Positions 1,154 to 62,235 are shown, numbered from the stretch's first letter. The stretch is 64,000 nucleotides of DNA from an uncultured Phycisphaeraceae bacterium (GCA_964460345.1 CAYWRO010000011.1:1872-65871), one strand, 5' to 3'. Notes: generated by a model from the sequence alone, not told the origin. Program-made: numbers and translations.

Positions 1154-1405
1154 GGGCCAACTTGCGGTAAAAGCGGGCCGGAACACTTTATTTGTCCAGC
1201 CACACACTCTCTTTGTGGGCCCACGAAGAAACTTCTCGGGCCCGAGAAGAGACTTCTTTGGCCCATGAACGTCCTTCTCGGGCCCGCGAAGAGGCTTTTT
1301 GGGCCCGTCGACCTTCTTCTTGGGCCCATCAAGAGACTTTGCGGGCCCGGCAACGCTCTTCGTGGGCCCATCGACTCTCTTCTCGGGCCCGCGATGGACT
1401 GCCGT
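1154..1405. repeat. Tandem array A: about 12 units of 21 bp (9 well conserved) built around palindromic GGGCCC
   Basis: GGGCCC or a one-mismatch variant starts at 1154, 1175, 1217, 1238, 1259, 1280, 1301, 1322, 1343, 1364 and 1385. Every interval is 21 or 42 bp. Units read GGGCCC-nn-GAAGAnnCTTCTy. Confidence 0.9.
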
Positions 1406-1522
1406 GCCGCGGGGAGCTTCGCATCTGCCGCGTTGGCACCCGGCTGTCGCGCGGGTTGTCAGAGCGGCGCGCCGGGAAGGATCGGCTGCGGCCGCGGCGG
1501 CCGGGGGCCTTGATGCGGCGGC

Positions 1523-1539
1523 TTGGCACGCCGGTTGAT
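1523..1539 (+). promoter_or_regulatory. Candidate sigma54-type -24/-12 promoter upstream of the hsp20 cluster
   Basis: TTGGCACGccggTTGAt compared with consensus TGGCACG-N4-TTGCW; only the C of TTGC differs. It lies 68 nt upstream of the hsp20 ATG at 1607. Confidence 0.35.
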
Positions 1540-1606
1540 ATCCGCTCCGACGAAGGGTCAGAAGGCCGGGTGTGGCAGCCCGGATGTTTGAGAAGGAGGA
1601 CAACCG

Positions 1607-2059
1607 ATGTTGACACGAACGCTGTTGCAAAATGATCCGTTTGTGGCGCTGTCGCGTGAAATGGATCGCCTGTTTGAGACGTTTGCACCGACGGGGACTT
1701 CTGCGCCGGCGCTGGTGCGCGGGCAGTTTCCGATGCTGAACATCTGGCAGACGGATGAGGAGGTCCATGTCGAGGCGGAACTGCCGGGCTTCCGGCGCGA
1801 GGATGTAAGCGTGCTGGTCTTCGATGATGAACTGACGCTCAAGGGTGAGCGGCGCATCGAACATCCGGAAGAGGCGCGCATCGTCCGCGCCGAGCGGGCC
1901 GCGGGCAGCTTCGAGCGCTCCGTCAGGCTTCCGGTCGCGGTTGACGCCGACGGGACGACGGCGTCGTTCACCGACGGCGTGCTGCACATCACGCTGCCGA
2001 AGGCCGCGGCCGCGCTGCCGCGCCGGATCGAGATTACATCCGGCGAGCAGCGCGAGTAA
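1607..2059 (+). CDS. Hsp20/alpha-crystallin family small heat-shock protein
   Basis: 150 aa with an alpha-crystallin core (NIWQTDEEVHVEAELPGFRREDVSV ... GSFERSVRLP ... ASFTDGVLHITLPK). AAGGAGGA RBS sits 7 nt before the ATG. Confidence 0.9.
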   Translation: MLTRTLLQNDPFVALSREMDRLFETFAPTGTSAPALVRGQFPMLNIWQTDEEVHVEAELPGFRREDVSVLVFDDELTLKGERRIEHPEEARIVRAERAAGSFERSVRLPVAVDADGTTASFTDGVLHITLPKAAAALPRRIEITSGEQRE

Positions 2060-2107
2060 GCGTGGGGAGCAGGCGTGCGTGTTGGTTTGAAGAAGGAGGA
2101 CTGCACC

Positions 2108-2521
2108 ATGGCTGAGACGAACGCTATTACGAGAACGGAGCCGCAGAACGTGACCACCCGGCGCGCTGAGCCGGACTCGCGCAGCGCCGCCTGGTCGTAC
2201 CGCCCGCCGACGGACATCGTCGAGACCGGCGAGGGGTACACCCTCTGGGTCGATGTGCCGGGCGCCTCATCGGAGACGATCGACCTGAGCGTGGAAGACG
2301 GCGTGATGAGCATCCAGGCGCATGTGCCGCCGCGATATCCGGAGAATGTTCGTTTCGCGCACCAGGAGTACGGCGTCGGGAACTATCACCGCCGCTTCCG
2401 GCTGGGCGATGACATCGATCAAGAGGGAATCCGCGCCTCCTGCGAGCGCGGCGTGCTGACCGTTACGATGCCGAAGCGCGCCGCCGCGCGGGCTCGGCGC
2501 ATCGAGATCACGAGCAACTGA
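2108..2521 (+). CDS. Hsp20/alpha-crystallin family small heat-shock protein (second copy)
   Basis: Motifs TDIVETGEGYTLWVDVPGASSETIDLSV ... GNYHRRFRLG ... ASCERGVLTVTMPK. I prefer the ATG at 2108 (AAGGAGGA RBS just upstream) over the track start at 2075. Confidence 0.85.
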   Translation: MAETNAITRTEPQNVTTRRAEPDSRSAAWSYRPPTDIVETGEGYTLWVDVPGASSETIDLSVEDGVMSIQAHVPPRYPENVRFAHQEYGVGNYHRRFRLGDDIDQEGIRASCERGVLTVTMPKRAAARARRIEITSN

Positions 2522-2535
2522 CGGTGAACAGATGC

Positions 2536-2570
2536 GGGGGCGGCGGCGTAGCAGCGCGGTCGCCCCCTTT
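2536..2570 (+). terminator. Possible intrinsic terminator after hsp20 copy 2
   Basis: GGGGGCG (2536-2542) pairs with CGCCCCC (2561-2567) and is followed by TTT. The loop is long (18 nt). Confidence 0.35.
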
Positions 2571-2641
2571 CTCATGCCGCCATGCGGTGTGGCGGCTCGC
2601 GGCCCCGGGGCGGCGCACCACGAAACACAGGGGAAACTTCC

Positions 2642-4129: not shown

Positions 4130-4552
4130 CACTCTGGCGCAGCGAGCGCGCTGCGCCCATGCTTAGACAGTGGTTTGACGCGACCGGTGCACCTGTGTGC
4201 GCCGGTCGCTGTTATTTTGGTGTGCGGGCACGCGCGTCGCTGAGGGGCCAAAAACGCGTTGGCGCAGCGGAAAACAGGGTGGAAGTGCTACTTTCGCAAA
4301 TTGGGCATTTGGGCGGGAGGGTGGAAACGGAACCCATCATGTACACCATCGTAAATTTGGGGTAAGTTTCCCAAGCCAAGGGAAAAGCCGCGTCGGGAGG
4401 ACGCATCCCAACCGGAGCGGCACGGGGCAAGCGGCGAGAGGACAAGGGCGCGACCAACGGGGCGTTCAGACGAGCCCGGCGGAGCCGGGACGGGTGTTCG
4501 CTGTTTCCTGCGGCCGCACGAGCATTGACACTCAAGGAAGGGGGCCTTTGAA

Positions 4553-4810
4553 ATGCCCGCACGCAGAACGATGGAAATGCACCGTTTCACACTCGCCTGT
4601 GTTGCCGCCCGAGTCAGCCATGGGCAGCAGGGGGTGGGCTCAACGACGAGCCGCCGCGGCACCGATCCGCGGATCACGTATGAAATCATCGCCCCCCGCG
4701 GCGACTATGCCGGGGCCCGGGCACGCGCCTTCGCCCAGTTCAAGGCGGAGTTCGGCGCTGATTCCTCCCCGCGCCTGATGGGGTGGTCGATCGGCCCCTG
4801 CCTGAACTGA
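4553..4810 (+). CDS. Hypothetical small protein (85 aa), weak call
   Basis: ORF preceded by AAGGAAGGGGG about 10 nt upstream, with mostly G/C third positions. A strong hairpin plus T-tract follows at 4911-4953. No recognisable motif. Confidence 0.3.
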   Translation: MPARRTMEMHRFTLACVAARVSHGQQGVGSTTSRRGTDPRITYEIIAPRGDYAGARARAFAQFKAEFGADSSPRLMGWSIGPCLN

Positions 4811-4910
4811 CTCTCCAGGATTTCCCGGGCCTCCTGCCCGCGGCTGCGGCCTGCGAGAGACCGAGCCGCGGGCAGGCGGACCCTGCTCGCACGACAACCA
4901 AGCTCCTGGC

Positions 4911-4953: not shown

Positions 4954-5009
4954 GCGCGCGGGCTGTGGCGGAAGAGCAACCGGCGTGGTCCGGAGCGGGT
5001 ACGACCCGC

Positions 5010-5816: not shown

Positions 5817-5846
5817 TGCGCGGGGAGGCGGAGCTACCCTTCCGCA

Positions 5847-16285: not shown

Positions 16286-17737
16286 ATGAACTCACGAAGC
16301 GCGCTCACCATTGCGATGATGTTGTTTGCGGTGCATTCGGGCCAGGCGGAGGTTATCGTTGTCCACCCAGGTCCGGGAACGCCCGTTCAAGATGCGATAG
16401 ATAGTGCGAACGCCGGCGACGAGGTCGTTCTGATGCCTGGCGAGTACACTGAAACGATCGACTATCTCGGCAAGGCGATCACCATCCGGTCGGATGCTGG
16501 TCCTGGCGTCACAGTCCTGGACGCCGGCGGGCTTGGCCCCGCCGTTCGGTTTGTTACCGGCGAGGGCGCCGGGTCGGTTCTCGAAGGGCTCGCCCTTACC
16601 GGTGGGGTGGGCGAGTTTCGCGGCCAACTCCGCGTCGGGGGCGCTGTCTACATTGATGGTGCGTCCCCAACGCTGATCGATTGTGTGTTTCAAGGGAATA
16701 CTGCGGATGTCGGGGGGGCGGTAGCCGTGTTGGCCGAGGGCGCACCACTTGTCAGGGGCTGCTCGTTTCAGTCCAACACCGCCGATCAGGGTGGGGCGGT
16801 CTACGTGTTGGACGCCTCTCCTGGATTGCTTCAGTGCGTCTTCCACGCCAACGGTGCTGAGTTCCGCGGCGGGGCGATGCTCATTGACGGCGACGCGGCG
16901 CCGCAGATTGTCAACACAAGGTTTCATGGGTCGAATGCGGCGAAACTTGATGGCGGAGCAATCGCCTGTCTTCGCGATGCCGCGCCGACATTGATCAATG
17001 TCGTGCTGACCGGCAACGCCGCGGAATGCGGCGGAGGGGGCGTCTACGCATTCCACGGCTCTTCGCCTGTGATTGCGCACGCGACGCTGGTGGGTAATGC
17101 GGGGACTACGGGCCCTGGCTTCCTGGCGGAAGCTAGTTCCCAGGGAACAGTGGTCAACTCCATATTCGCCGGCGGCGCAACCGACCTCATCGCCGGCACG
17201 GGCCTCACCGTCAACTACTCGCTCGTCCAGGGGGGATGGAGCGGCGGCGGAGCAGGGAACATTTCATTGCCACCACGGTTGCTGGATCCGGTCGGCCCGG
17301 ACAACCTCCTTGGGACGCCGGACGATGATGTTCGCCTTGCTTCCGGCTCTCCTGCAATCGATGCCGCCAGCGGGGCGCTCCTGCCGGCCGACTCGCTCGA
17401 CGCCGATGCGAATGGTGATGTGAGTGAGCCGATCAGTGTGGATCTGGCTCTGGCCGCCCGCGCGATTGACGCCCTCGCTTACGCCGATGCGGGCGTCCCC
17501 GCCGCGAATGGGGCCGTGCCGGACATGGGCGCGTATGAGGCCGCGGCGGACGTTCTGCCCTTCTGCCTTTGCGAGGTCGACGGAGCGGCGGGGATAGACG
17601 TGATGGACTTGCTGGCGTACCTCGATCTTTGGTTCGAAGGCGCCGAAGCCGCCGAACTCACGGGAGACCAGCCGGCGGTCGTAGATGTATTCGACTTGCT
17701 CGTGTTCCTGAACTGCTGGTTCGTCGGCTGCGGGTGA
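16286..17737 (+). CDS. Secreted right-handed beta-helix repeat protein with C-terminal GC-type dockerin
   Basis: Signal peptide, repeated GGAVY/GGAI beta-helix rungs, and the tail [43 protein letters not shown]. Confidence 0.8.
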
Positions 17738-17958
17738 ATTCGCCTTGGGGCTGTCCCCCTCTAGCCGCGCGGGTGGTATCGGTCCGCCCGCGCGGCTTTG
17801 TTCGTTTGGGGACACATCGCGCGGCGCGCTGGCCGCTTCGCACTACCTCACCTACGCTGTCGGCAATTTGGCCGGGTCGGTCCGTGTGGCCCCCGGGTAC
17901 CAAGCGCCCACCGAACATTGCGGCCCCCGTGGGCCGGAGCGTGACCCGCCTGCCCATC

Positions 17959-20900
17959 ATGCCCAAGCGAACCGACATCAAAACCATCCTCATCCTCGGC
18001 TCCGGCCCCATCGTCATCGGTCAGGGGTGTGAGTTCGACTACTCCGGCACCCAGGCGTGCAAGGCGTTGCGCAGCGAGGGGTTCCGGGTTGTGCTGGTGA
18101 ACTCGAACCCGGCGACGATCATGACGGACCCGGAGTTCTCCGACCGGACGTACATCGAGCCGATCACGCCCGCGGCGGTCCGGAAGGTGATTGAGAAGCA
18201 GATCGAGATCGGGGACCCGATCGACGCCATCCTGCCGACGCTTGGCGGGCAGACGGCGCTGAACTGTGCGTGTGCGCTCTTTGACGATGGGACGCTGGAC
18301 AAGCACGGGATCGAGATGATCGGGGCGAACCGGCACGTGATCCACCGGGCGGAGGATCGCGCCGCGTTCAACGAGGTGTGTGCGCGCGTGGGGCTGCGCA
18401 TCCCGGAGAGCCGGACGGTCTCGACACTTGCCGAGGCGCGCGAGTTTCTGGAGCAGATCGGGCTGCCGGCGATCATCCGTCCGGCGTTCACGCTCGGCGG
18501 CAGTGGGGGAGGAATCGCGTACAACACGGAGGAGTTTGACGAGATTGTCAGCCGCGGGCTTCGGCTGAGCATGATCAACCAGGTGCAGATTGACAAGTCG
18601 CTGCTGGGGTGGAAGGAGTACGAGCTGGAGGTCGTGCGCGACAAGCGCGACAACTGCATCGTGGTGTGCGGGATCGAGAACTTCGATCCGATGGGCGTGC
18701 ACACGGGGGACTCGATCACGTTTGCGCCGATCATGACGCTGACCGACAAGGAGTATCAGGTGCTCCGCGACGCCAGCTTTGCGATCATGCGCGAGGTGGG
18801 CGTGGAGACGGGGGGGAGCAATGTGCAGTTCGCGGTGAACCCGAACCCGGAGGATGGGAAGTTCGAGTTCGTCGTCGTCGAGATGAACCCGCGCGTGTCG
18901 CGCTCCAGCGCGCTGGCATCCAAGGCGACGGGCTTCCCGATTGCGAAGATCGCGGCCAAGCTTGCGATCGGGTACACGCTGGACGAGCTGCGCAACGACA
19001 TCACGGGCACGACCAGTGCCTGCTTCGAGCCGAGCATCGACTACATCGTCACGAAGATGCCGCGGTGGACCTTTGAGAAGTTCCCCGAGGCGGATGAGAC
19101 GCTCACCACGCAGATGAAGAGCGTCGGCGAGGCGATGAGCATCGGGCGGACGCTGACCGAGTCGCTCCAGAAGGCGATCCGCTCGATGGAAGTGAAGCGC
19201 TTCGGCCTCGGGCTCGACCGCAACGACGACTGGCTGGAGGCCCGCCGCGCGACGAAGGACGAGCAGGGCGTGCCGCGGCGGACGGACGGCTCGCCGATCG
19301 AGTGGCCGATCCCCGAGGAGAAGCTGAGCCGCAAGCTCACGGTGCCGAGCCAGGGGCGGCTCTACTACATCCGCTACGCGATGAAGATGGGGTGGCCCGT
19401 CGAGCGCATCAACGCGCTTTCGAAGATCGATCCGTTCTTCTTGGACCAGATCAAGCGGCTCGTGGAGTTCGAGGACGAGCTGTGCGAGGTTGCGCGCCTG
19501 GAGGATTTGCCGCGCGAGACGCTTTTCCGCGCCAAGCAGATGGGGTACTCCGATGCGCAGCTTGCGAACCTGTACCTCGGGAAAATCTCGTCGGAGACGA
19601 TTCTGAAGGTGCGGGCGCATCGGAAGGCGCTCGGGATCGAGCCCGTCTACAAGCTCGTCGACACGTGCGCGGCGGAGTTCGAGGCGGTGACGCCGTATTA
19701 CTACTCGACGTATGAGCAGGGGGTGGAGCGGGCGAGAGACGGAGAGACGGAGAGACGAAGAGACGAAGTGGGGGATTCGCAAACGTCGTCCGACGCGCGA
19801 CACTCCGTCTCTTCGTCTCTAAGTCTCTCCGTCTCTCCCGACGACGAGATCCGCGTGACGGACCGCAAGAAGGTGATCATCCTCGGTGGCGGACCCAACC
19901 GCATCGGCCAGGGGATCGAGTTCGATTACTGCTGCGTGCACGCGGCGTTCGCGGCGAAGGAACTCGGCTTCGAGTCGGTGATGATCAACTCGAACCCGGA
20001 GACGGTATCAACCGACTACGACACGAGCGATCTGCTCTTCTTTGAGCCGTTGACGCTGGAGGATGTGCTGAACGTGGTGGAGCGGCTGAACGGGTCGGGG
20101 CCGGCAGTGGAGCAACTCGTCACGTCGGACGGGATCACGCTTGGCTTGGATCGTGCAAACGATGGTCAGCAGGTCCCTCCAGATTGGATTCAGCAGATTC
20201 GTCAGGCCGCGAGTGGCGCGGGTATCGGCCCCGTTGCAGTCGTGGACGCATTTCAGTCGCGGCACGAGACCGGAGTTCATGCCGTCGATCTTTCGGGAGG
20301 GTTGTGGAGGTTTGCGTTCAACGCTAAGAGCGGGGGCCCGGTCCACGTCGCGCAGTGGAACTGGGATGAAGCGCTGGGCGGTGACAATCGCGAGGAACGT
20401 GAACTGGCAGCGGCGTGGAGGGAACGTCGACGCCTCGTCAACGGCCTCATCGTCCAGTTCGGCGGCCAAACCCCCCTCAACCTAGCCCACGGCCTCGCCC
20501 GCGCCGGCGCCCCCATCATCGGCACCTCTCTCGACTCGATCGACCTCGCCGAAGACCGCGACCGCTTCGACAAGCTCCTCACGCAGCTCAATCTTCAAAA
20601 ACCTCCCAGCGGCATCGCCCGCTCCGTCGATCAGGCCGTTGAGATCGCCGGCCGCATCGGCTACCCCGTTCTCGTCCGCCCCTCGTACGTCCTCGGCGGC
20701 CGCGGCATGGAGATCTGCTCCGACGAGAAGGCCTTGCGGCACTACATGGCGACGGCGGTGGACATTTCCGAACTCGACAACGCCCCGGTGCTGATTGATA
20801 AGTTTCTTGATCGGGCGACGGAAGTGGATGTTGACGTCGTGGCTGACTTCGAACCTTCGGGGAGAGACAAAGAGACAAAGAGACGAAGAGACGAAGTGGG

Positions 20901-21936
20901 GGAGCCACAAGGTGCGTCCACCGCACAACACCCCGTCTCTTCCTCCCAGGCCATCTGCTGCGGCGTCATGGAGCACATCGAGCAGGCGGGCATTCACTCC
21001 GGCGACTCCGCCTGCACCACGCCTCCCTGGTCGCTCGCGAAGGACACCGAGCAGGAGATCCGCCGCATCGCCCGCACGCTGGCCGAGGCGCTGCGCGTAA
21101 ACGGCCTCATGAACGTCCAGATGGCCGTGAAGCAGAACGGCGACTCGAACGGCGGGGGTGATGAGATCTACATCCTCGAGGTCAACCCCCGCGCCTCCCG
21201 CACCGCGCCCTTTGTCGGCAAGGCCAAGCACGTTCCCTGGCCGCGGATCGCGGCCCGCGCCATGATGGGCCTCTCCCTCGCCGAGCAGAACGTTCGCGAA
21301 GTCCGCGACACGGGCGCATTCGCCGTCAAAGAGTCTGTCTTCCCCTTCAGCAAGTTCCCCAACGTCGATGTCGTCCTCGGTCCGGAGATGCGCTCGACCG
21401 GCGAGGTGATGGGCATCGACGCTTCGTTGCCGATCGCCTTCGCCAAGAGCCAGTTCGCCGCGAGCGTGGACCTGCCGCTTGAAGGCGCAGTCTTCATCTC
21501 CGTGCACGAGCGGGACCGGCAGGAAGTCACGGGCGTCGCCCGTCTCCTCGCCGAGATGGGTTACACGCTCTACGCGACGGCAGGCACCGGAGCACACCTC
21601 CAGCAGCACGGCGTCGAGGCGCACATCCTTCAAAAGATCGCCTCGGGCGCGCGCCCCAACGTCATCGACCTGATGAGCGACGGGAAAATTCAGTTTGTCA
21701 TCAACACGGCGACAAAGGTTGGCTGGCAGACAGACGAGGGCCGCATCCGTGCCGCGGCGACCCGCCTGGGCATTCCGATGATCACCACCATGACGGGCGC
21801 GCTGGCCGTTGCCAAGGCGATCCTCGCCCTGCGGGAACGGGGCTGGGGTGTCAAGGCGATGCAGGACTACGCGGCGGAGAGCGGAGCGCCGGTGGTGCAG
21901 GTCAAGGCCGCCTCGGGCGAGCCGGCAGCGAGGTAG
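17959..21936 (+). CDS. carB: Carbamoyl-phosphate synthase large subunit (1325 aa, about 250 aa longer than typical)
   Basis: [33 protein letters not shown] at 17959; second half [24 protein letters not shown]; [16 protein letters not shown]; MGS-like C-terminus. The track start at 17569 is an in-frame extension. Confidence 0.93.
19734..19837. repeat. Purine-rich octamer-repeat inverted-repeat element, in frame inside carB
   Basis: The 37-nt arms (GAGAGACG)x3-AAGAGACGAAGTG at 19734-19770 and 19801-19837 are 34/37 complementary, around a 30-nt loop. Confidence 0.8.
20862..20945. repeat. Second copy of the octamer-repeat element, in frame inside carB
   Basis: GAGAGACAAAGAGACAAAGAGACGAAGAGACGAAGTGGGGGA. 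Positions 20879-20903 are identical to 19751-19775 (25 nt). There is a partial right arm CACCCCGTCTCTTCCTC. Confidence 0.75.
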
Positions 21937-25930: not shown

Positions 25931-26944
25931 TCAGAGGCGCTGCCGGCCAGGCCACACCCGCGCCGGGAACCCCGGCGGCCCAACCTCCGGCCTTCCGTTC
26001 AGCCAGCCGACCAGCCATTCCTGCGCTTCGACCAGCCGCGGCCCGGGGCGGTTGAACATCGCGTTCCCGTCGACGACCGCGACGCGGCCCATCCGAACGG
26101 CCGGCAGGTCCTCCCACCACGACTCGCCGCTGAGGCGTTGCACGTACTCCAGCGCCCCCTCCAGCCCCACCCCGCACGGTGCAATCACCAGCGCTTCGGG
26201 ACCAATCGCGGCCAGTTCCTCCGGCGACGCACGCCTGGAGGGCCCCGCCTCACGCATCGTCAGCCCGATCGGCCCCGCCGCGGCCCCCGAGCCCTCGACC
26301 GCCTGGGTCGGGTTGAGCGGGTGCCGCGCTCCGGCCCGCTCCACCATCTGGGCGGTCCAGTGCCCCGCGACGTAGAGCGGGTCCGTCCAGTCCAGGAACA
26401 CCGCCACCGGCCCATCGTCGTAGGGGTTCACGTAGTCCGCGGCCTGGTAGAGCCGTTCGCGGAGCCGCAGGACGGTCAGTTCCGCCTCGCGCTCCAGCCC
26501 CGCCGCTGCCCCGATCCGCAGGTGATCGTCCAGCACCCCCTCGACCGTCGTCGGGTTGAGTGACAGCACCTGGGGGGCTGGATCCAGCGTCGCGGCGACC
26601 CGCCGGACAGATTCCAGATCGATCGAGCAGACGCTGCAGAGGTCCTGCGTGAGGATCAGGTCCGGCCGCAGGTCCGCCAAAAGGGCCTCATCGATCTGGT
26701 ATAGAGGTTTGCCCGCCTCGACCCGCTCGCGAACGGCCCGATCGATCTCTTCCGGCTTCGCGGGCTCGGGACCCGCCTCCCCACCCCACGTCGCACGGGT
26801 GAGGACGGCCGCGTCCTCCAGCCCCGCTGGATGATCACATTCGTGAGATCGCCCGACCAGCAGCCCGCGGCCGCCGATCGCGCACACGATCTCCGTTGCC
26901 GATGGCAGGAGAGACACGATCCGCATGGTCGATGGTAGTGGCAC
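25931..26944 (-). CDS. TroA/BtuF-like periplasmic-binding-fold protein (cobalamin/iron-chelate binding family)
   Basis: RIVSLLPSATEIVCAIGG..LVG.SHECDHP, then PDLILTQDLC, typical of BtuF-like class III binding proteins. No obvious signal peptide. Start is uncertain (GTG 26944 or ATG 26926). Confidence 0.7.
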   Translation of the reverse strand: MPLPSTMRIVSLLPSATEIVCAIGGRGLLVGRSHECDHPAGLEDAAVLTRATWGGEAGPEPAKPEEIDRAVRERVEAGKPLYQIDEALLADLRPDLILTQDLCSVCSIDLESVRRVAATLDPAPQVLSLNPTTVEGVLDDHLRIGAAAGLEREAELTVLRLRERLYQAADYVNPYDDGPVAVFLDWTDPLYVAGHWTAQMVERAGARHPLNPTQAVEGSGAAAGPIGLTMREAGPSRRASPEELAAIGPEALVIAPCGVGLEGALEYVQRLSGESWWEDLPAVRMGRVAVVDGNAMFNRPGPRLVEAQEWLVGWLNGRPEVGPPGFPARVWPGRQRL

Positions 26945-27120
26945 CCAGACGGGTGTACGCTCGATGCAGAGCGCTTCCGTCTCGAAATATGGCTGTTACC
27001 GGCCCCGGAGGCCGATCCAGCCGCCCACCGCACGACCATCCACCCCCGTTCAGTGCACTAAAACGGGGGGCCTACCGTTGGACGTTCCGTCAAGGGAGGT
27101 GCAGCATTCTTCACCGGCAG

Positions 27121-29814
27121 ATGAACACGCCACGCATGCAAACTCGCCATCGGAACATCGCTTGCAGACACCCGCGCCTCGCCGCGGCTCTTCTGGCCGC
27201 GTGCGGCCTGGCCGTCACGCTCGCCGTTCCGGCCGTCTCGATCGCGCAGGAAGGCCAGCCGGACGAGATGATCCAGCGCGAGATTCGCCAGCTTCGCAAC
27301 TCGCTGGAAGACCTTGAAGCCCGCGCGCTGGAGGTCCGCATCAGCATCGCCGAAGCCGACGATGGAGATGAGCGCGCTCGGCTTCAGGACGAACTCTTCG
27401 GCATTGAGTCGGAGATCGAGACGGTCCGCGAGTCGATCATCCGCCGCGGCGGGGACCCGGACGCCGCCGCACAGCCTGCGCCGGCCCAGCCTGCCCGGCC
27501 CGGTGTTGACCGCAGGGCCGAGGCATTGGCCGCCCTGCAGCAGGCCGAGGCCCAGGAGGGCATGGTCGAGATCGGTCCGTTTTCCGAGCCGGTCGACATC
27601 ATGCGGCTCGTTGAGTTCGTCCAGCAACTGCTGGATCTGAACCTCATGGTGGTCGACCCCGGCCTCGAGGGCCAGCAGGTCGTCATCCGCACCCCGATCT
27701 CCGTCCCGGAAGAAGGACTGCTCGACTTCCTCGTCCTTCTGCTCGAGCAGAAGGGCTACACGCTCGTGCCCGATCGCGGCGTCTACCTCATCGTGCAGAG
27801 CGTCAATCCGCCGGCGGGGCCCGCCACGACGCAGATCATCCCGACGCAGGGGCTGCGTCCCAGCCAGGTGGCTCAGCTCATGAGCAGCATCGTGGCGCAG
27901 AGCGGCCGCATTCAGCCGCTGGATGAGATGGGTGCGCTGCTCGTCACGGCGACGCCGCGCCAGATCGGGCTGGTCAACGACCTGCTCAACGACCTGGTCG
28001 CCAAAGCCAGCGAGGTGCAGTGGTTCCGCTTCGATTTGAAGCACGTCACGGCTGACATCGCTCGTCAGCGCATTCTCGAACTTCTCGATCCGGCCCGGGG
28101 CGCACCGCGCACGCCGGTCCCCGGTCAGCAGGCCGACCCCCGCAGCGCCGTCGCCGTCACCGCTTCCGTCGTGGATCTCCCCCAGCGCCTCACCGTCGAC
28201 AGCCAGTCCAATGCGCTCATCTTCAAGGGCCGCCCGGATGAGCAGCTCATGCTTGAGGATCTGCTCAAGGTCGTCGACCAACCGAGTGAACTCGTCACAC
28301 GCTGGTACGAGGTCAGCATGGAGACCGCCACGAAGATGGTCAATGCCGGCCAGCGCGAGGGCCTCGGCCGCGTTGTCTATGAGGACGCCGTCGGCCAGCA
28401 GCCCGCCTTCCGCAGCGTTCGGGCGCCGCAGCTTCAGAATCAGTTTGATACCACCGGCGGCCCCGCCTTCATCATCTATCCCGACGCCTCCGGCTTCATG
28501 TACTACGGCACCGAGACGCAGCACCAGCGCATCGAACAGCTCATGTACCAGTTCGAGGGCATCGAGAGCGGCGACACGATCGTTTACGAGTTCTACAAGC
28601 TCAAGCACTCCGACGCCGCCGAGGTCGCCGCGCTCATCCAGGATCTCATTTCCTCTCAGGGGCAGGCCGGCAACCGCGGCCTTGTCGGTAGCGATCTCTC
28701 CCGTCGTGGCGAGCTCACGCCCCCCCCGCAGACGCCCCAGCCGGAGCCGCAAGTCCAGTCTCCCGCAGCGGGGGGCCTGGAAGCGCAGATCGGCGCGATC
28801 CTCCCCACGGAGGACATCAATGTCCTCGCCGACGAGTTCAACAACCAGATCATCGTGAAGGCGCCCAGCCGCCTGCAACCGGTCTTCGCCCGCATCATCG
28901 AAAAGATCGACCTCCGCCGCCCGCAGGTCTACCTCGAGGCGATGATCGTCACGGTGACCCACGACGACACCTTCAACTGGTCCGTCGATACCCAGGGCGT
29001 GTTCGGGCAGTTCGGCATCCAGAGCGTCTTCGGCCTCACCAGCGCCAGCGAGGGCGCCACGCTCCTTGATCCGCGTCAGGCAGGCACCGGTTTCAGGGGC
29101 CTCACGGCGGCCCTGATCCGCTCTGACAGCGTGCCGTTTGTGCTCAACGTGCTCGCCTCCGACGCGGACACCCGCATCGTCGCCAGCCCCCAGGTTTTGG
29201 TGGACGACAACGAGACGGCCACCATCCTGAGCCAGGAGGGCCAGCCGACCACCTCCATCAGCCAGGGCACGACCACCGACGTCACGAGCTTCCAGGGCTT
29301 CGAGGAGGCCGGTCCAGAGCTGACGATTACCCCCCATATCAGTGAGGGCGGCTACGTCCGGCTCGAGTTCGCCGCCACGCTCTCCTCCTTCATCGGCGAA
29401 TCCCCTTCTCCGGGGATCCCGCCGCCACGCCTCGAGAACAGCATCGAGACCAGCAGCGTACGAGTTCCATCGGACTCGACGATCATCGTGGGCGGTCTCT
29501 CCTTCGAGACCACCAGCGACACGGTCTTTAAGGTGCCGATCCTGGGGGACATTCCCCTGCTGGGGCTGGCCTTCCAGGACATCCGCAAGAACAACAGCAC
29601 AACCACGCTCTACGTCTTCATCACGCCGCGGATCATGCGGGATGACCACTTCCTCGGCGAGATCCTCAACACGGCCGAGCCGATCGCCGCGGCGGGCGTT
29701 GAACCCGCCGGGCCGCCGCCGCCGACCATCGCCAGGATGCGCCTGCGGTCGCACGACCGGCTTGCCGACGAGGTTGAGGAGACGTTGATGCGGTACGGAG
29801 ACACGGGCGAGTGA
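27121..29814 (+). CDS. gspD: Type II secretion-family secretin (GspD/PilQ-like)
   Basis: Signal-like N-terminus, repeated secretin N-domains, and a C-terminal secretin domain ending VPILGDIPLLGLAF....TTLYVFITPRIM. The track start at 26896 is an extension. Confidence 0.85.
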   Translation: MNTPRMQTRHRNIACRHPRLAAALLAACGLAVTLAVPAVSIAQEGQPDEMIQREIRQLRNSLEDLEARALEVRISIAEADDGDERARLQDELFGIESEIETVRESIIRRGGDPDAAAQPAPAQPARPGVDRRAEALAALQQAEAQEGMVEIGPFSEPVDIMRLVEFVQQLLDLNLMVVDPGLEGQQVVIRTPISVPEEGLLDFLVLLLEQKGYTLVPDRGVYLIVQSVNPPAGPATTQIIPTQGLRPSQVAQLMSSIVAQSGRIQPLDEMGALLVTATPRQIGLVNDLLNDLVAKASEVQWFRFDLKHVTADIARQRILELLDPARGAPRTPVPGQQADPRSAVAVTASVVDLPQRLTVDSQSNALIFKGRPDEQLMLEDLLKVVDQPSELVTRWYEVSMETATKMVNAGQREGLGRVVYEDAVGQQPAFRSVRAPQLQNQFDTTGGPAFIIYPDASGFMYYGTETQHQRIEQLMYQFEGIESGDTIVYEFYKLKHSDAAEVAALIQDLISSQGQAGNRGLVGSDLSRRGELTPPPQTPQPEPQVQSPAAGGLEAQIGAILPTEDINVLADEFNNQIIVKAPSRLQPVFARIIEKIDLRRPQVYLEAMIVTVTHDDTFNWSVDTQGVFGQFGIQSVFGLTSASEGATLLDPRQAGTGFRGLTAALIRSDSVPFVLNVLASDADTRIVASPQVLVDDNETATILSQEGQPTTSISQGTTTDVTSFQGFEEAGPELTITPHISEGGYVRLEFAATLSSFIGESPSPGIPPPRLENSIETSSVRVPSDSTIIVGGLSFETTSDTVFKVPILGDIPLLGLAFQDIRKNNSTTTLYVFITPRIMRDDHFLGEILNTAEPIAAAGVEPAGPPPPTIARMRLRSHDRLADEVEETLMRYGDTGE

Positions 29815-31605: not shown

Positions 31606-31710
31606 AGTTCACGACAGAGACACTGAGACACGGAGAGGTCACGGAGAGTGCCGGGCGCTTTCTGTCCCTCTCGCCTGACTTTTCTCTGTGCCTCTGCGCC
31701 TCTGTGGTTC
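31606..31710. repeat. Intergenic purine-rich octamer-repeat imperfect hairpin
   Basis: Left arm CACGACAGAGACACTGAGACACGGAGAGGTCACGGAGAGTG faces the CT-rich right arm CTTTCTGTCCCTCTCGCCTGACTTTTCTCTGTGCCTCTGCGCCTCTGTGG. Both have an 8-nt periodicity. Confidence 0.6.
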
Positions 31711-31780
31711 AATTTATCAGTTGCACGGAGCGTCGCGTGGGTCCGCGGTTTGTTCGGGTCGAAGGTCCGGATAACGCAGG

Positions 31781-32011
31781 CAAATGATCAAATGAGCGGC
31801 CCAAATGATCAAATGGACCGGGCAAATGATCAAATGGACGGAGCAAATGATCAAATGGACGGGCCAAATGATCGAATGAGCGGGCCAAATGATCAAATGG
31901 ATGGAGCAAATGATCAGATGGCCCGTTTCATTCGTTCAGATGGATGGTTCAATCGTTCAAATGAGCGGCCCATTCGTTCAAGTGGCTCGTCCATTCGTTC
32001 GAATGAAGCGT
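31781..32011. repeat. Tandem array B: 11 units of exactly 21 bp (7 x CAAATGATCAAATGnnnnGnn, then 4 x yCATTCGTTCAAATGnnnnGn)
   Basis: CAAATGATC starts at 31781, 31802, 31823, 31844, 31865, 31886 and 31907. The variant units start at 31928, 31949, 31970 and 31991. Confidence 0.9.
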
Positions 32012-50540: not shown

Positions 50541-52352
50541 ATGCGCAGAACGGCCGATCGTTGTCGTCTCCTCCAGTTGCTCTGCGCCGCCGGCGCGCTT
50601 TGCAGCGCCGCCGGCCTCGCCTCGGCAAAGGACATCATCTATGTCTCCGCCGCCACGGGCAGTGACTCGGCCGACGGCTCCTGGGCCCAGCCGCTGGCGA
50701 CCATTCAGGTCGCCCTTGCCCAGGCCGATGCCATGCCCGGGGTGCAGTCGATCTTCGTTGCCACCGGCAACTATGAACCCATTCAGTTGGTTTCGGACGT
50801 CCGTCTCTTCGGAGGCTTCGATTCATCGACCTGGCAGCGCAGTCAGGCCGGATTCGATCTCACTGTGATCCGCGCTACCGACGGACCGACCAATGCCGCC
50901 GTGCACGGCAGCAACGTCGGCAATGTCCTCATGGATGGGTTCACCATTCTGACGGACGATCGCACCGCTGCTCAGGAGAGCGCCTACGGCGTGCGCCTCT
51001 TCAGTTGCACGGCAGTTGAGATCAGCAACAGTTCGATCGTTGTGGGCGCGGGCGGTGACGGCGTGAACGGCGGTCCCGGCGCTTCAGGTGCGCCGGGCTC
51101 GCCGGGGGCGACCGGGCAGCCGGGATGCGAAAACAGCGCCGCCTTCTGCGGCACGTGCGCTCAACCCATGGGCGGTTCTGGGGGCTTCGGGGGCGGCGGC
51201 GCGGGGGCGGGAGGCAGAGGCGGCCGCGCCGGTCTGGCCGACGCGCACGGCGAGGCTGGTCAAACCGGCCAGTCCGCGATCGGAGGCGCCCCGGGCGGTA
51301 GTGGAGGGGCGGGAGTTCCGTCCGGGAGGGGCCAACTGCCGCCTCCGGGTTCCAGCTACGGCCAGCCGGGCACCCCCGGTCAGGCTGGCGCGCACGGCTC
51401 AGCCGGCGAACCGTACGGAACGGATGTGCCCGGCGCGGGGTACACGCCGAGTGACGGCAGTCCGGGTTTGAACGGCCGCGGCGGCGCTGGCGGCGGGGGT
51501 GGAGGCGGCGGGGGTGGAGGCACTAGCTCTTGCGACAGCTACGGCAGCAGTGGCGGGGGTGGGGGCGGTGGTGGTGGACCCGGCCAGGGCGGGCAGCCGG
51601 GAACCGGTGGCGGCGGCTCGTTCGGCATTTACCTCACAAGCTGTGCGGGCATCACCGTGGTGCACTGCCACGTCGCGACAGGTCCGGGCGGCGAAGGAGG
51701 CGCCGGCGGCACTGGCGGCAACGGTGGGGCTGGCGGCCCCGGCGGCTTTGGCGGTCCCTACGGCGGCGCTGCGGAACAGGACGACGGCTCAAACGGTGCG
51801 CCGGGCGGCCAGGGAGGCGCCGGCGGTTCGGGCGGACATGGCGGTGGCGGTGGGGGCGGCCCCTCGGTCTGCATTGTCAATGCCGATGCAGCAGATCCCG
51901 TCATGCTCGCATCGGTCACCCTCATGCCGACGGCGTCTGGCAATGGTGGCCTCAGCCAGGGCAACAGCGGGCCTGACGGCTTTGTTGCCCCGGTTCGCGG
52001 ATCATCGGCAGGCGCCATCGTCAACCCCGACTGCGATGCTGACAGCGTCAACGACTTCCTGCAGATCGCGGAAGACCCGTTCACGCGCGACTGCAACTGC
52101 AACGATGTGCTGGACGCCTGTGAAATCGCGGCGGGAACGGCCGTCGACGCCAATGGCGATGGGCTGCTGGATGCCTGCCAGACCTGTCCATGCGACATGA
52201 ACAACCCGTACGACGGTGTCGATGTGTTCGATTTGCTGGCGTACCTCGATCTCTGGTTCGCCGGTGCGCCAAACGCAAACTTCAACCTCGACGGCGGGGT
52301 CGATGTATTCGATCTGCTGGCGTACCTGGATTGCTGGTTTGAGGGGTGCTGA
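50541..52352 (+). CDS. Secreted beta-helix/DUF1565-like protein with a long collagen-like Gly-rich region and GC-type dockerin
   Basis: Signal peptide, IYVSAATGSDSADGSWAQPLATIQVAL, GxP/GGxG-rich tract of about 250 aa, and the tail [15 protein letters not shown]...GVDVFDLLAYLDCWFEGC. Confidence 0.8.
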   Translation: MRRTADRCRLLQLLCAAGALCSAAGLASAKDIIYVSAATGSDSADGSWAQPLATIQVALAQADAMPGVQSIFVATGNYEPIQLVSDVRLFGGFDSSTWQRSQAGFDLTVIRATDGPTNAAVHGSNVGNVLMDGFTILTDDRTAAQESAYGVRLFSCTAVEISNSSIVVGAGGDGVNGGPGASGAPGSPGATGQPGCENSAAFCGTCAQPMGGSGGFGGGGAGAGGRGGRAGLADAHGEAGQTGQSAIGGAPGGSGGAGVPSGRGQLPPPGSSYGQPGTPGQAGAHGSAGEPYGTDVPGAGYTPSDGSPGLNGRGGAGGGGGGGGGGGTSSCDSYGSSGGGGGGGGGPGQGGQPGTGGGGSFGIYLTSCAGITVVHCHVATGPGGEGGAGGTGGNGGAGGPGGFGGPYGGAAEQDDGSNGAPGGQGGAGGSGGHGGGGGGGPSVCIVNADAADPVMLASVTLMPTASGNGGLSQGNSGPDGFVAPVRGSSAGAIVNPDCDADSVNDFLQIAEDPFTRDCNCNDVLDACEIAAGTAVDANGDGLLDACQTCPCDMNNPYDGVDVFDLLAYLDLWFAGAPNANFNLDGGVDVFDLLAYLDCWFEGC

Positions 52353-61500: not shown

Positions 61501-61819
61501 GGTCAACGTCTTCGACGCCGTGATGGAGGCCGGCCGCGCGCGCCTCCGTCCGATCATCCTCACCACGCTCACGACCGTCCTCGGCCTGCTCCCCCTCATC
61601 ACGGAAACGTCCTTCCAGGCCCGCTTCCTGATCCCCATGGCGATCACGATCAGCTTCGGCCTCCTCGCCGCGACGGTCGGCGTGCTGCTCGTCACCCCGT
61701 GCGTCATCCTCATCGGCGACGACCTCCGCGCGCTCGCGCGGCTGCTGTGGAAAGGCGAGCGCCGCCCCGACCCCGCCGAGGCGTACACCATTACGCCGTC
61801 CGAGCACGCCCGGATGTGA
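58520..61819 (+). CDS. Efflux RND transporter permease (AcrB/CzcA superfamily)
   Basis: 1099 aa with the 12-TM, two-large-loop architecture. Typical GLIIVIGILVDDGIV and GFIALTGVVVNDAII TM4/TM10 motifs. Confidence 0.92.
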   Translation: MMRAIAHYGVHHPVVVNLLVFTLVAAGLIFGVTLRREFFPEVRPNLVVVAAPYPGAAPDEIEQSLVLKIEDAIADLNDVVEIQTTVTFGAASVQVEFAEGVDIEDAVAQVKRKVDALEDLPPQSERIVVQELEPNLPAIALTYTGEGDERQMKRIIRGMRDDLESFPEMGGIVVSGVRNDEISVEVHPPALLEHSLSIAAVSQRITEAMREIPGGSVRTSSATISIRTIGAQEQAEEVRDIVVKALPEGSAIRIRDIADVTVGFEDVDLITRLNGKPAVSLTAFKVGDEDAVLISEMVRAYAAGRTRQPLELSRRESLSIAAVERSGSALPPRIAAYRLGLARPPIDAEDLIPNTDLARFITDRLELLSRNAFWGGIFVFASLLLLLNLRVALWVTAGLIISILGTLAFMAAADITLNLMTMFGLIIVIGILVDDGIVISENITARHEAGEPALTAAVNGMREVAWPVVATVITTVLAFGSLVFVQGQVGDMLAVLPAVVVVALSVSLIEALFVLPSHMAHSLHRHEQRARPGRVARFMDRMDERRLRLIQQVIVPRYLVILRTCATHRYITCAAAAALLIISLAMVAGGRLPFSFLGTQDAETIVVDLQMPIGTPLSATERIMARIERAALDQPEVSTALAVIGARSNADGRENIAQSHVGQIWIELKPGEERDRTSDDVIASIRQGAGDLPGIRSLRINGLSGGPEGPALTYTVTSDRPSLIPPVVQAVKDLLATVPMVYDVADDADAGARELRIELLPGARELGFTVESIAMQIRGWVYGLEPHTFAAPDEDVDVRVMLDAPWRRSLAAIEHLDVFTPDAGGGGGGSRAVPLREVARLTEAEAYATVRRLDRRRAVSVTAEVVDKASQTEKIAAQLAPLIAEIEREHRGVRILERGQQEEVADSLSTLPLGILVACSLIYVTLVILFNSFLQPGIILFTVPFSIVGMVWGHLALGYDLTMLSLIGFIALTGVVVNDAIIFIEFYNHKRREGVNVFDAVMEAGRARLRPIILTTLTTVLGLLPLITETSFQARFLIPMAITISFGLLAATVGVLLVTPCVILIGDDLRALARLLWKGERRPDPAEAYTITPSEHARM

Positions 61820-61868
61820 CGCTCGCCTCCCCCATTGCGTGCGTCCTCCCCGTTATCGGTGGCTCGTT

Positions 61869-61887
61869 GCCGCAAAAGCGGCTTTCT
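61869..61887 (+). terminator. Small hairpin plus T-tract after the RND gene
   Basis: GCCGC-aaaa-GCGGC followed by TTTCT. Confidence 0.3.
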
Positions 61888-61925
61888 GCCTCGCCACAGC
61901 GGTTTTCACGTCCGAATAACCGGCG

Positions 61926-62156
61926 CCTGAAATGATTTCTGACGCACCAGAATTGATTTCGGACGAGTCGGACACGAGTTTGCACGCGTCGGAAGTGGGT
62001 CCGCACGCGTCCGAAACGACATCCGATGCGTCCGACACGAAGTCGCACGCATGAGAACTCAAGTCGGACGCATCAAAAACGAGGTTGCACGCGTCTCAGA
62101 CGAACTCGCACGCGTCTGAGATGAAATCGCACGCTCCTGAAATGAAGTCGCACACA
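61926..62156. repeat. Tandem array C: 11 units of exactly 21 bp (consensus TCnGAnAcGAnnTcGCACGCG)
   Basis: Unit starts at 61926, 61947, 61968, 61989, 62010, 62031, 62052, 62073, 62094, 62115 and 62136. A degenerate extra unit lies at 61905. Confidence 0.9.
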
Positions 62157-62172
62157 CGCCTCCCCGCCCCCC

Positions 62173-62235
62173 ATTCTCTATTCTCTCTTCTCTATTCTCT
62201 AATCACTACCCACTGTCCACTATCAACTATCAACT
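62173..62235. repeat. Nine tandem heptamers (ATTCTCT x4-like, then AnyCACT / ATCAACT)
   Basis: ATTCTCT ATTCTCT CTTCTCT ATTCTCT AATCACT ACCCACT GTCCACT ATCAACT ATCAACT. AT-rich, and immediately 3' of the rnr stop. Confidence 0.8.

Follow-up and report, generated by a model that had tools for sequence, protein, structure and literature searches.

Anatomy of three intergenic arrays

The window that we analysed, a 64-kb segment of a Phycisphaerales (Planctomycetota) chromosome, carries three intergenic arrays of about 11 operator-like units each, here called A, B and C, whose neighbours are pfkA, hsp20, gspE, PAP2, acrB and RNase R (arrays and repeat elements are given without strand). By TRF and autocorrelation, 21 bp, together with its multiples 42 and 63, is the sole period with long-range self-identity in the window, and TRF and a sequence-agnostic autocorrelation scan agree in placing the period-21 signal at exactly three positions, ~1.2 kb, 31.8 kb and 62 kb. 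Two repeats are all that a scan for shorter arrays (at least 4–5 copies) adds, one at 51.5 kb that is G-rich and coding, and one at 62.17 kb with a 7-bp unit. In the register tables A has 9 (+2) units, B 7 + 4 and C 11, which makes the arrays ~231 bp long (~11 × 21). All three follow one general plan, in which a 14–18-bp core with two half-sites is joined to a variable linker of 3–7 bp; identity between the units of an array is 60–85%, and each array contains large inverted repeats. The consensus units of A, B and C are unrelated in any rotation and on both strands (p 0.24–0.92), and none of the cores recurs outside its own array in the 64 kb. At lags of 7 and 14 the self-identity of all three arrays is that of the background, and an origin from triple heptamers (STRR, 3 × 7) was rejected for want of a signal at these lags. 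Spacing between the arrays is roughly 30 kb (n = 2 intervals only); A lies between divergent genes and B and C between convergent genes, with no consistent relation to promoters.

These observations bear out a preliminary description of the same DNA in three respects, namely that the arrays lack mutual similarity, that they are lower in GC (0.61 for A, 0.47 for B and 0.56 for C, against 0.67 for the window) and that a conserved core alternates with a variable segment, for which the dimensions are now those given above. Its 21-bp period without indel drift holds at all three arrays as far as the period goes, but B contains a register slip of +1 bp; its count of 11–12 units each agrees with C (11) and B (7 + 4), whereas A has 9 clear units and 2 degenerate ones; and the several open frames that it mentioned exist in A and B, but in C every frame has a stop inside the array.

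Array A (1216..1404) comprises 9 clear 21-bp units, seen by TRF, by autocorrelation and in the register table, and is flanked by divergent pfkA and hsp20-hsp20-htrA, so that it lies upstream of both sides. In each unit an imperfect palindrome of 18 bp, CTTCTY-GGGCCC-RnsAAG, is joined to a linker of 3 bp, and T-type and C-type units alternate, which creates a 42-bp super-period. Two degenerate units lie in register at 1174..1215 (starts 1174 and 1195), with mean identity to the core units of 10.3 and 8.6 of 21 positions against a background of 4–7. Conservation is roughly symmetric about the dyad, and the palindromy exists at the level of the consensus: complementarity between a unit's own arms is 3.8/6, vs 3.2/6 with the arms of other units, and the arms show almost no compensatory covariation apart from one Y..R pair. 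A sigma-54-like −24/−12 motif, TGGCACGCCGGTTGA (1524..1538, + strand; one mismatch at the −12 GC, in the C), lies 120 bp downstream of A and 70 bp upstream of the first hsp20 (1607–2059), with a weaker copy at 1432–1446; as the window-wide count of such motifs is at chance level, only the position of this one is suggestive. In addition, array A could be a platform from which an activator or repressor controls, from upstream, the divergent promoters of pfkA and hsp20-hsp20-htrA. The motif, imperfect as it is, occurs downstream of A only, and no gene is downstream of B or C, since both lie between convergent gene ends.

Array B falls into two blocks. In B1 (31779..31925) the 21-bp unit occurs 7 times. 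Its core, CAAATG-AT-CAAATGG, includes TGATCA and has two hexamer half-sites in direct orientation at a distance of 8 bp, and its linker of 6–7 bp is variable and GC-rich. B2 (31927..32010) has 4 units of 21 bp in a register shifted by +1 relative to B1, the slip falling between units 7 and 8, and in its core, CATTCG-TT-CAAATG, the left half-site is inverted relative to B1. B2 and part of B1 together make up an inverted repeat of 51 nt (71% complementary), and throughout B, 22 hexamers resembling CAAATG recur at fixed phases, either direct or inverted. The conserved core is AT-rich and the linker has a genome-like GC content, a combination opposite to the compositional drift to be expected when genome GC is 67%. 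Between the gspE stop (31562) and B lies a short-period GAGAC/CTCTG hairpin element (31610..31705) that is separate from the 21-bp array.

Array C (61923..62153) consists of 11 units of 21 bp with sharp boundaries. Its core is a 14-bp quasi-palindrome, TCGSACG-CGTCYGA, centred on ACGCGT, with conservation roughly symmetric about the dyad, and its linker of 7 bp is A-rich and variable. Heptamer repeats, (ATTCTCT)x4 and (ACTATCA)x2.4, occupy 62173..62235 between C and the RNase R stop (62242).

Base rate, distribution and mutational record

Period 21 accounts for ~3 of 130 unselected tandem arrays (~2%) in 2.7 Mb of other DNA, in a census that counted arrays with a period of at least 9 and at least 3.5 copies, and at this base rate the chance of two further arrays matching the period of the first is ~4e-4. 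That unrelated arrays share both a period and a near-identical length (~231 bp) by chance is unlikely, and the base rate thus supports the earlier claim that the convergence in period and length exceeds chance. In viral control scans, period 21 was found in 3 stretches, period 18 in 43 and period 24 in 6, so 21 is not generally favoured.

No such array was found in 80 other Phycisphaerales loci (1.47 Mb) or at the orthologous junctions of the nearest available relatives, which are distant (identity at most 82% for GspE, 71% for PfkA and 65% for RNase R), and all three arrays lie at gene junctions unseen in relatives. The preliminary description had taken absence from orthologous loci as pointing to ordinary minisatellites, and such absence is what we observe, though in distant relatives; any function of the arrays would consequently be young or dispensable. 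The clade is rich in short intergenic tandem repeats, with heptamer arrays at three loci (L006, L035 and L082) and GAGAC hairpins. RNase R directly adjoins a BP2-secretin-gspE block in 27 of 81 relatives, and in the window the 30-kb B-to-C segment intervenes, with the housekeeping genes purL, a sugar ABC transporter, GH94 and acrB. In metagenomes, GGGCCC repeated four times at 21-bp spacing gave more than 120 heterogeneous matches, about half of them coding Gly-Pro heptads, and none adjoins relatives of the window's genes. GGGCCC hairpin arrays of period 21 also occur in a phage-like contig (L218/L219), between genes that run in the same direction; kinship of A with these was rejected, the agreement at 9/15 positions outside the core not being significant after multiple testing.

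Across the arrays we counted ~137 substitutions from consensus and one indel only, the register shift of 1 bp. With 20 substitutions per indel, the ratio reportedly given by Chen et al. 2009, the expectation is ~7 indels, and P(<=1)=0.008. Mismatches cluster in the linker columns of A (p=0.011–0.016), B1 (p=0.029) and C (p=0.009). Such clustering could partly come from higher-order duplication of 42- or 63-bp blocks.

The assemblies that carry the window's proteins are Logan contigs of less than 11 kb and one 2-kb ENA contig. Independent public assemblies, 9 Logan contigs for A and 1 for B, are base-identical across the array, which means that these two arrays are not assembly artefacts. The comparison of strains for unit gain or loss that had been proposed revealed no copy-number change among 10 assemblies (9 for A and 1 for B, including one ~1%-diverged strain that covers part of A), and this diverged strain has no indel in the part of A that it covers. 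Between strains, A has 5 SNPs in 169 bp as compared with 8 in 492 third codon positions, approximately the synonymous rate, and its SNP density shows no sign of purifying selection, on small numbers.

Pfam scans of the window's genes detected no partition, rep, bEBP or other obvious cognate-binder gene next to any array, and no ParA/ParM/TubZ NTPase or centromere-binding protein beside them. Reverse transcriptase, integrase and transposase are absent from the 64-kb window, and no leader motif common to the array flanks was found, so that the template-driven generator proposed earlier finds no support. A link to partition or bEBP proteins is likewise unsupported, as no such gene adjoins any array and the sigma-54-like motif lies near A only. 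Nor is DNA curvature, another early suggestion, common to the three arrays: predicted intrinsic curvature, computed with wedge parameters, is extreme for B, in the top 1% for C and ordinary for A, and we rejected it as a shared property since only B, and weakly C, is predicted to be curved. Rfam and tRNA searches of the arrays returned no family match, a mir-50-type match being just a hairpin. BLAST against 72,556 plasmids (PLSDB) and 50,697 phages gave no array matches, a viral pattern scan for B returned nothing, and a dif site was not found at the GC-skew switch. CRISPR was rejected as an identity, since the arrays have 14–18-bp cores with linkers of 3–7 bp that are diverged copies of one another, and cas domains are missing. 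A literature search found no description of such arrays.

Phased binding sites and the rival explanations

Judging from the anatomy of the units, we tentatively favour the reading that each array is a row of sites in helical phase, specific to this lineage, at which dimeric DNA-binding proteins would bind, although we would not put it above even odds. Dimeric DNA-binding proteins usually have a footprint of this kind, a core of 14–18 bp with two half-sites, and an exact repeat of 21 bp, two helical turns, places all sites on the same face of the duplex. Cores with two half-sites, variable linkers and few indels despite many substitutions make up an anatomy that fits phased binding sites. Each array would be a row of ~11 operator-like sites, with two half-sites per core, that its own sequence-specific dimeric protein might coat cooperatively, building a nucleoprotein filament or a single superhelical turn of ~230 bp; selection on helical phase and total length could then yield unrelated sequences with a common period and unit number. 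Such a structure may act in insulation, nucleoid anchoring or regulation. On sequence grounds the arrays look like putative scaffolds for protein binding, of a type so far uncatalogued in bacterial chromosomes, and the phased scaffold raised in the preliminary description finds backing in the cores, linkers and rarity of indels, but not in its neighbours, as no partition or bEBP gene is adjacent. It counts against the binding-site reading that three unrelated cores would need three different binders. Also counting against it are the lack of a cognate-binder gene beside the arrays, their absence in relatives and the near-synonymous SNP rate in A, as well as the inconsistent placement relative to promoters, the unshared curvature and the share that 42- or 63-bp block duplication may have in the clustering of mismatches.

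The main rival to phased binding sites, a possible but somewhat doubtful one, sees in the arrays fossil minisatellites, selectively neutral tandem duplications peculiar to the lineage. Slippage or unequal exchange would have expanded them in a single episode, substitutions would have eroded them since, and their common period and ~11 units would be a coincidence or the outcome of a lineage-specific mutational bias. Absence from the relatives' orthologous junctions and the 80 Phycisphaerales loci, placement of all three at junctions unseen in relatives, a clade generally rich in short intergenic tandem repeats, the SNP density of A close to the synonymous rate and the lack of associated genes are all consistent with such an origin, as are the 42- and 63-bp higher-order periods, which are typical of satellite evolution. 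Fossil minisatellites fit less well with a probability of ~4e-4 for two more period-21 arrays at a ~2% base rate, with the coincidence of unit numbers, with one register change against ~137 substitutions, with mismatches concentrated in linkers and with a copy number constant in 10 assemblies, the diverged strain included; and slippage cannot produce the B2 half-site, which is inverted with its phase kept.

We consider it unlikely that the arrays are REP/BIME-like transcribed hairpins, acting at the RNA or single-strand level as multi-hairpin 3′-end stabilisers, terminators or insulators between convergent genes (B and C) or within a long leader (A). Folding does beat shuffled controls (z = −6.7, −5.6 and −2.8 for the three arrays), each array has its large inverted repeats, no canonical intrinsic terminator is present at the convergent 3′ ends on either side of B and C, and the phage-like contig offers a 21-bp parallel in its hairpin arrays between co-directional genes. 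Transcribed hairpins, however, leave the exact 21-nt period and common unit number without a reason, and the B1 units are direct repeats instead of palindromes, the arms of A are nearly devoid of compensatory covariation (one Y..R pair), A lies upstream of both flanking genes, Rfam has no match and the cores, unlike a REP consensus, are not dispersed in the window. It is very unlikely, in our estimate, that the arrays are what remains, or one end, of an element able to move or replicate (as iterons, binding sites at a transposon end or a partition site would be), and equally so in the variant in which B and C bound a 30-kb insertion. Unit size, phasing and copy number do resemble the iteron and centromere arrays generally known from R6K, P1, R1 and F, and the B-to-C segment does split the RNase R and BP2-secretin-gspE neighbourhood found in 27/81 relatives; but a single inversion explains that synteny equally well, the B-to-C genes are housekeeping, rep, par, integrase and transposase genes are missing from the window, plasmids and phages gave no BLAST matches, and B and C, being unrelated on either strand, cannot be terminal inverted repeats. 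Protein-coding heptad repeats, at seven codons per 21-bp unit, are suggested by the open frames of A and B and by the coding Gly-Pro heptads that make up about half of the metagenomic GGGCCC arrays, and are refuted: GC3 is 0.48–0.64 in every frame compared with 0.78–0.94 in genes of this genome, variable positions form contiguous blocks instead of falling on third codon positions, stops interrupt all frames of C, and gene callers place no gene at the arrays in Logan contigs. An assembly artefact is refuted by the identity of independent assemblies.

A bolder version of the binding-site reading, and one that we regard as quite improbable, would make the arrays undescribed chromosomal architectural elements, that is, sequence-diverse, phase-locked 231-bp arrays at regular ~30-kb intervals on a planctomycete chromosome with their own paralogous binders, which together would anchor domains or insulate at gene junctions; 231 bp would then represent 11 × two helical turns, or about one nucleoprotein superhelical turn. 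Should the arrays be bound scaffolds, phased repeat arrays of the plasmid style would operate within ordinary bacterial chromosomes too, and the selected property would be helical phase and array length and not sequence. This would open nucleoid organisation to concrete tests in Planctomycetota, a phylum with poorly known chromosome biology, and searches elsewhere would go by period and length instead of sequence. If they are fossil satellites, the common period would indicate a mutational process particular to this lineage, one that merits study although its interest would be narrower.

Comparison with known systems

CRISPR arrays have 23–50-bp repeats, unique spacers of similar length and cas genes, and the present arrays show none of these. 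VNTRs and minisatellites, such as the mycobacterial MIRUs, are likewise head-to-tail, intergenic and lineage-specific, with 10–100-bp units, but have diverse periods per genome, high unit identity and copy-number polymorphism, whereas the period here is uniform and unit identity 60–85%. REP/BIME elements of enterobacteria and pseudomonads, for which binding of the architectural proteins IHF and gyrase has been proposed, resemble our arrays as tandem palindromic units that are extragenic and often lie between convergent genes; REPs, however, are RAYT-mobilised copies of one consensus, hundreds per genome, whereas here each core is found in its own array only (64 kb) and the arrays are mutually unrelated.

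Iterons, as in the R6K gamma ori (7 × 22 bp) and P1 incA (9 copies), share with the arrays units of 17–22 bp, two-turn spacing, 4–9 or more copies and a conserved core with a short variable spacer. They are co-oriented, whereas the units of A and C are palindromic and B and C have inverted half-sites or units, and their neighbours are a rep gene, DnaA boxes and an AT-rich unwinding element, of which we found none here; their context is plasmids and phages, to which the arrays have no similarity (PLSDB plasmids and phages). Partition centromeres (R1 parC, 10 × 11 bp; pSK41 parC, 4 × 20 bp; F sopC, 12 × 43 bp) are likewise short, phased tandem sites, ~4–12 in number as against 9–11 here. Their dimer-bound, helically phased sites form one superhelical or ring-like nucleoprotein turn. 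Different centromeres have a common architecture built from unrelated site sequences, as A, B and C do. Centromeres lie beside parA, parM or tubZ and an adaptor gene, on plasmids and phages or near oriC; the arrays have no such genes, and three different ones occur within 64 kb in a housekeeping chromosomal context.

Sigma-54 enhancers have a GG-N10-GC element about 80–200 bp downstream of the sites, and the TGGCACGCCGGTTGA of A has the −12 C mismatch. Several regulator dimers may line up at a single promoter, as with the ARG boxes of ArgR and the BvgA dimers along the ptx promoter (PMC7250471). Such multi-dimer arrays have 2–6 sites directly at the promoter, in contrast to 9–11 sites here, where B and C have no promoter to serve. 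ARG boxes are 18-bp palindromes 3 bp apart, and this 18 + 3 = 21 bp geometry, with several dimers on one DNA face, is an exact match to that of array A.

Three intergenic arrays with a 21-bp period

Tandem Repeats Finder (TRF) and a sequence-agnostic autocorrelation scan of periods 4–69 concur that the 64-kb window holds a single long-range period, 21 bp (together with its multiples, 42 and 63 bp), and that it is confined to exactly three places. A scan for shorter arrays added only two repeats, a coding G-rich one at ~51.5 kb and one of 7 bp at 62.17 kb. Extents were set by laying out the sequence as 21-bp rows and scoring every row against the remaining units. Array A has nine strong units (1216–1404) and two weak, degenerate ones (1174 and 1195) that keep the register; array B has seven units (31779–31925, B1) and then four (31927–32010, B2); and array C has 11 units with sharp borders (61923–62153). 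The preliminary description had given each array about 11–12 units without indel drift, a count that holds for B and C (11 units, 231–232 bp each) but not for the nine clear units of A, whereas the claimed lack of drift breaks down in B, where a +1 bp slip between the two sub-arrays is the only register change in all three arrays. Its shared period was borne out by both scans, and we likewise found no likeness among the three consensus units (p = 0.24–0.92 over 42 rotation and strand combinations) and a GC content (0.61, 0.47 and 0.56 for A, B and C) below the 0.67 of the window. The statement that several frames stay open fails for C, all of whose frames are interrupted by stop codons; GC3 in the array frames is 0.48–0.64 vs 0.78–0.94 in genes, no frame carries a coding signature, and a coding repeat was rejected on these grounds.

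The pfkA-hsp20 spacer, including array A, is identical to the window throughout in nine Logan contigs (independent public assemblies) from different runs, and one Logan contig shows no difference from the window through array B, so the arrays are not assembly artefacts. Logan contigs bearing acrB (L002–L004) stop a few bases past its stop codon (window ~61835–61850) in poly-C/poly-G, and these ends arise from sequencing or assembly; they reflect neither variation at array C nor a property of it.

The window comes from the chromosome of an uncultured Phycisphaerales bacterium (Planctomycetota). Its RNase R has a best match of 63–65% identity among 185,579 species representatives, the top matches all being Phycisphaerales MAGs. 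Its own GspE and PfkA proteins are also recorded from an NCBI contig and from Logan assemblies. Array A lies between the divergent pfkA (minus strand, start 1039) and hsp20-hsp20-htrA cluster (from 1607). Arrays B and C both lie between convergent 3′ ends, those of the secretin-gspE operon (stop 31562) and a PAP2/vanadium-haloperoxidase-like gene (stop 32070) for B, and of hlyD-acrB (stop 61819) and RNase R (stop 62242) for C. Other genes in the window are housekeeping or metabolic (ksgA, mcsA/mcsB, L31, metH, carB, IF-1, a LacI regulator, GH94, a sugar ABC transporter and purL), and none encodes a reverse transcriptase, transposase, integrase, Rep, Par or Cas protein. The spacings between arrays, 30,563 and 30,144 bp, have a ~2% chance under random placement, with two intervals only. 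Two TTGGCAC(C/G)CCGG(C/T)TG motifs resembling sigma-54 −24/−12 elements (1432–1446 and 1524–1538) lie upstream of hsp20-hsp20-htrA; the second, TGGCACGCCGGTTGA, lies between array A and hsp20, 120 bp from the former and 70 bp from the latter, is mismatched at the conserved −12 GC, and belongs to a motif class found in the window at chance frequency. As mcsA/mcsB is located 6 kb from these motifs, this may be a heat-shock region with non-sigma-70 control.

Unit anatomy and the odds of a common period

Each core is confined, within the window, to its own array. The A unit consists of an imperfect palindrome of 18 bp, CTTCTY-GGGCCC-RnsAAG, plus 3 bp, with conserved columns symmetric around the GGGCCC dyad, and the C unit is a 14-bp quasi-palindrome, TCGSACG|CGTCYGA, around ACGCGT, then a 7-bp A-rich linker. 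Array B holds 22 CAAATG-like hexamers in two fixed phases: units 1–7 carry direct hexamers (CAAATG-AT-CAAATG), and in the last four the left hexamer is inverted (CATTCG-TT-CAAATG) with the spacing unchanged. Mismatches between units concentrate in the linker columns (p = 0.011–0.016 for A, 0.029 for B1 and 0.009 for C); TRF also picked up higher-order blocks of 42 and 63 bp, whose duplication could account for part of this clustering. Larger inverted repeats occur in all three arrays, and each array folds more favourably than shuffled controls (z = −6.7, −5.6 and −2.8 for A, B and C). The arms of A units are scarcely more complementary to their own partners (3.8/6) than to arms from elsewhere in the array (3.2/6), so the palindromy of A is a consensus-level property, not covariation that preserves hairpins. 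A dinucleotide wedge model puts B well ahead of every other 210-bp segment of the window in predicted curvature, places C in the top 1% and shows nothing unusual in A, which suggests that intrinsic curvature is not the common property of the arrays. No residual 7- or 14-bp periodicity, flank motif common to the three, or Rfam or tRNA match was detected in the arrays.

To gauge whether chance could produce the common period, we used ~2.7 Mb of comparison DNA (80 Phycisphaerales loci, 120 metagenome loci not among the selected matches and 49 viral loci), in which arrays of period at least 9 and at least 3.5 copies had periods from 9 to 126, with ~3 of 130 at period 21. Minisatellite-rich contigs have scattered periods (18–44 in L146, 10–54 in L129), and, given one 21-bp array, the probability of two further ones at the same period is ~4e-4, an improbability to which the near-equal unit numbers add. 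Control scans of IMG/VR gave 3 stretches at period 21, 43 at period 18 and 6 at period 24, so period 21 is not favoured in general. Across the arrays, ~137 substitutions from the consensus units accompany the single register change; a substitution:indel ratio of 20, as reportedly found by Chen et al. 2009, would predict ~7 indels (P(≤1) = 0.008), whereas a ratio of 40 gives P = 0.14, and because P depends on this ratio the scarcity of indels is suggestive, not decisive. The three arrays are a genuine and statistically unusual feature that is specific to this lineage.

Relatives and repeats elsewhere

The nearest available relatives are distant (GspE 81–82%, PfkA 71% and RNase R at most 65% identity), and in 1.47 Mb surrounding RNase R in 80 other Phycisphaerales, TRF and autocorrelation detected only heptamer-based arrays and none with a 21-bp period. 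In relatives, different genes follow gspE after 49–75 bp, and pfkA has another upstream neighbour across a gap of 57–248 bp. In 27/81 relatives, RNase R directly adjoins a block of BP2 (a periplasmic binding protein), secretin and gspE (loci compared include L005, L008, L018 and L097); in the window (25931–31562 vs 62242–63999) RNase R lies ~30 kb off, on the other side of gspE and inverted. The junctions at which all three arrays sit are thus particular to this lineage, with the caveat that synteny is low in general at such evolutionary distance. One inversion of the BP2-to-acrB block, with array C at a breakpoint, would explain the split synteny. In one relative (L040), RNase R adjoins a lacI-glucoamylase-GH94-DUF1559 cluster, found at 33.8–41 kb in the window. 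The GC skew changes sign at ~20400 (1–20 kb vs 22–64 kb), the plus strand being G-rich to ~20.4 kb and mostly C-rich beyond, independently of gene orientation; this marks either the terminus of replication or a trace left by a recent inversion, and no dif-like site was found at the switch. A slightly diverged strain, represented by one ENA contig covering part of A, differs by 19 SNPs and 0 indels in 2015 bp, which suggests that the unit number of A is stable between strains. Five of these SNPs fall in 169 bp of array A vs 8 in 492 third codon positions, and no purifying selection on A was detectable at the depth of one diverged strain with partial coverage.

BLAST of A, B and C against PLSDB plasmids and INPHARED phages gave no match, and IMG/VR contains no occurrence of the B pattern. 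Scanning metagenomes for four GGGCCC cores 21 bp apart returned >120 stretches (L098–L217), of which about half are coding Gly-Pro heptad repeats (e.g. L145) and ~25 look intergenic, with 5–17 units of conserved core and variable linker (e.g. L101, L116, L119/L169, L130 and L166); none was linked to relatives of the window's genes. Many such intergenic-looking arrays are carried by unrelated organisms in metagenomes, some forming families with several loci (L098/L118/L137/L138), and L166 has three inverted then nine direct units, much like array B. The 208-kb phage-like contig IMGVR_UViG_3300042340_000379 bears four arrays, all of one GGGCCC family, TTTAGGGCCCGYSAAAGKCC (L218 2256–2401 and 7430–7578; L219 1696–1884 and 3941–4172), with a 21-bp period, 42-bp alternation and 7–11 units. 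Their position, in every case between small co-directional genes and shortly before a gene start, makes them probable regulatory or terminator arrays. They may be an analogue of interest for array A, which they match outside the core at 9/15 positions, not significant after multiple testing.

Other repeats are also present. The carB gene (17569–21936, plus strand) is extended by three in-frame insertions when compared with E. coli CarB (aa 721–763, 839–957 and 1096–1128; window 19734–19838, 20083–20440 and 20863–20940), two of which are palindromic elements of 8-bp tandem repeats, (GAGAGACG)x4 ... (CGTCTCTC)x4, akin to the in-frame Rickettsia palindromic elements, here within an essential gene. 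A GAGAC/CTCTG short-period hairpin element (31610–31705), just downstream of the gspE stop and adjoining array B, has a 28-nt match (96%) in another Phycisphaerales MAG (L074 4970–5060) and therefore looks like a dispersed, clade-wide family. Heptanucleotide repeats (ATTCTCT and ACTATCA at 62173–62235; CCCGTCT x14, GCTGATG x13 and CCCACTG-type in relatives, L006 4485–4590, L082 1–95 and L035 19626–19734), often directly upstream of gene starts, are reminiscent of cyanobacterial STRR repeats. A 603-aa ORF (50541–52352) with G-rich tandem repeats (51473–51853) of period 9, 12, 15, 18 and 27 bp appears to encode a glycine-rich low-complexity protein.

Candidate functions and known repeat arrays

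The anatomy is best accounted for, we tentatively propose, by rows of helically phased putative binding sites for dimeric DNA-binding proteins, a reading to which we give somewhat less than even weight. It draws on the two half-sites within a 14–18 bp core followed by a short variable linker, the exact two-turn spacing that persists through heavy substitution, the half-site inversion in B with phase preserved, and the recurrence of ~11 units in three unrelated sequences. The main rival, that these are fossil, neutral minisatellites of a repeat-prone lineage, is in our view only somewhat less likely: relatives are devoid of the arrays, no associated genes accompany them and the SNP rate looks neutral, all of which agrees with it, whereas the coincidence of period and length across three arrays, the near absence of indels and the contrast between core and linker do not. 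A REP-like role as RNA or hairpins is possible for B and C but leaves the 21-bp period unexplained. We give transcribed hairpin arrays a low weight; mobile-element remnants and other readings jointly make up the remainder.

Among known systems, the arrays fail the defining features of REP/BIME elements, CRISPR, STRR and coding repeats, and fit the definition of minisatellites only trivially, as tandem repeats. Plasmid tandem-repeat centromeres and iteron arrays have the same phased-row architecture, but both of their hallmarks, the defining linked genes and the replicon context, were tested and found absent, so the window arrays are neither. Thus, while no catalogued family fits, the arrays, whose function is putative, probably resemble known phased repeat arrays in how they work.
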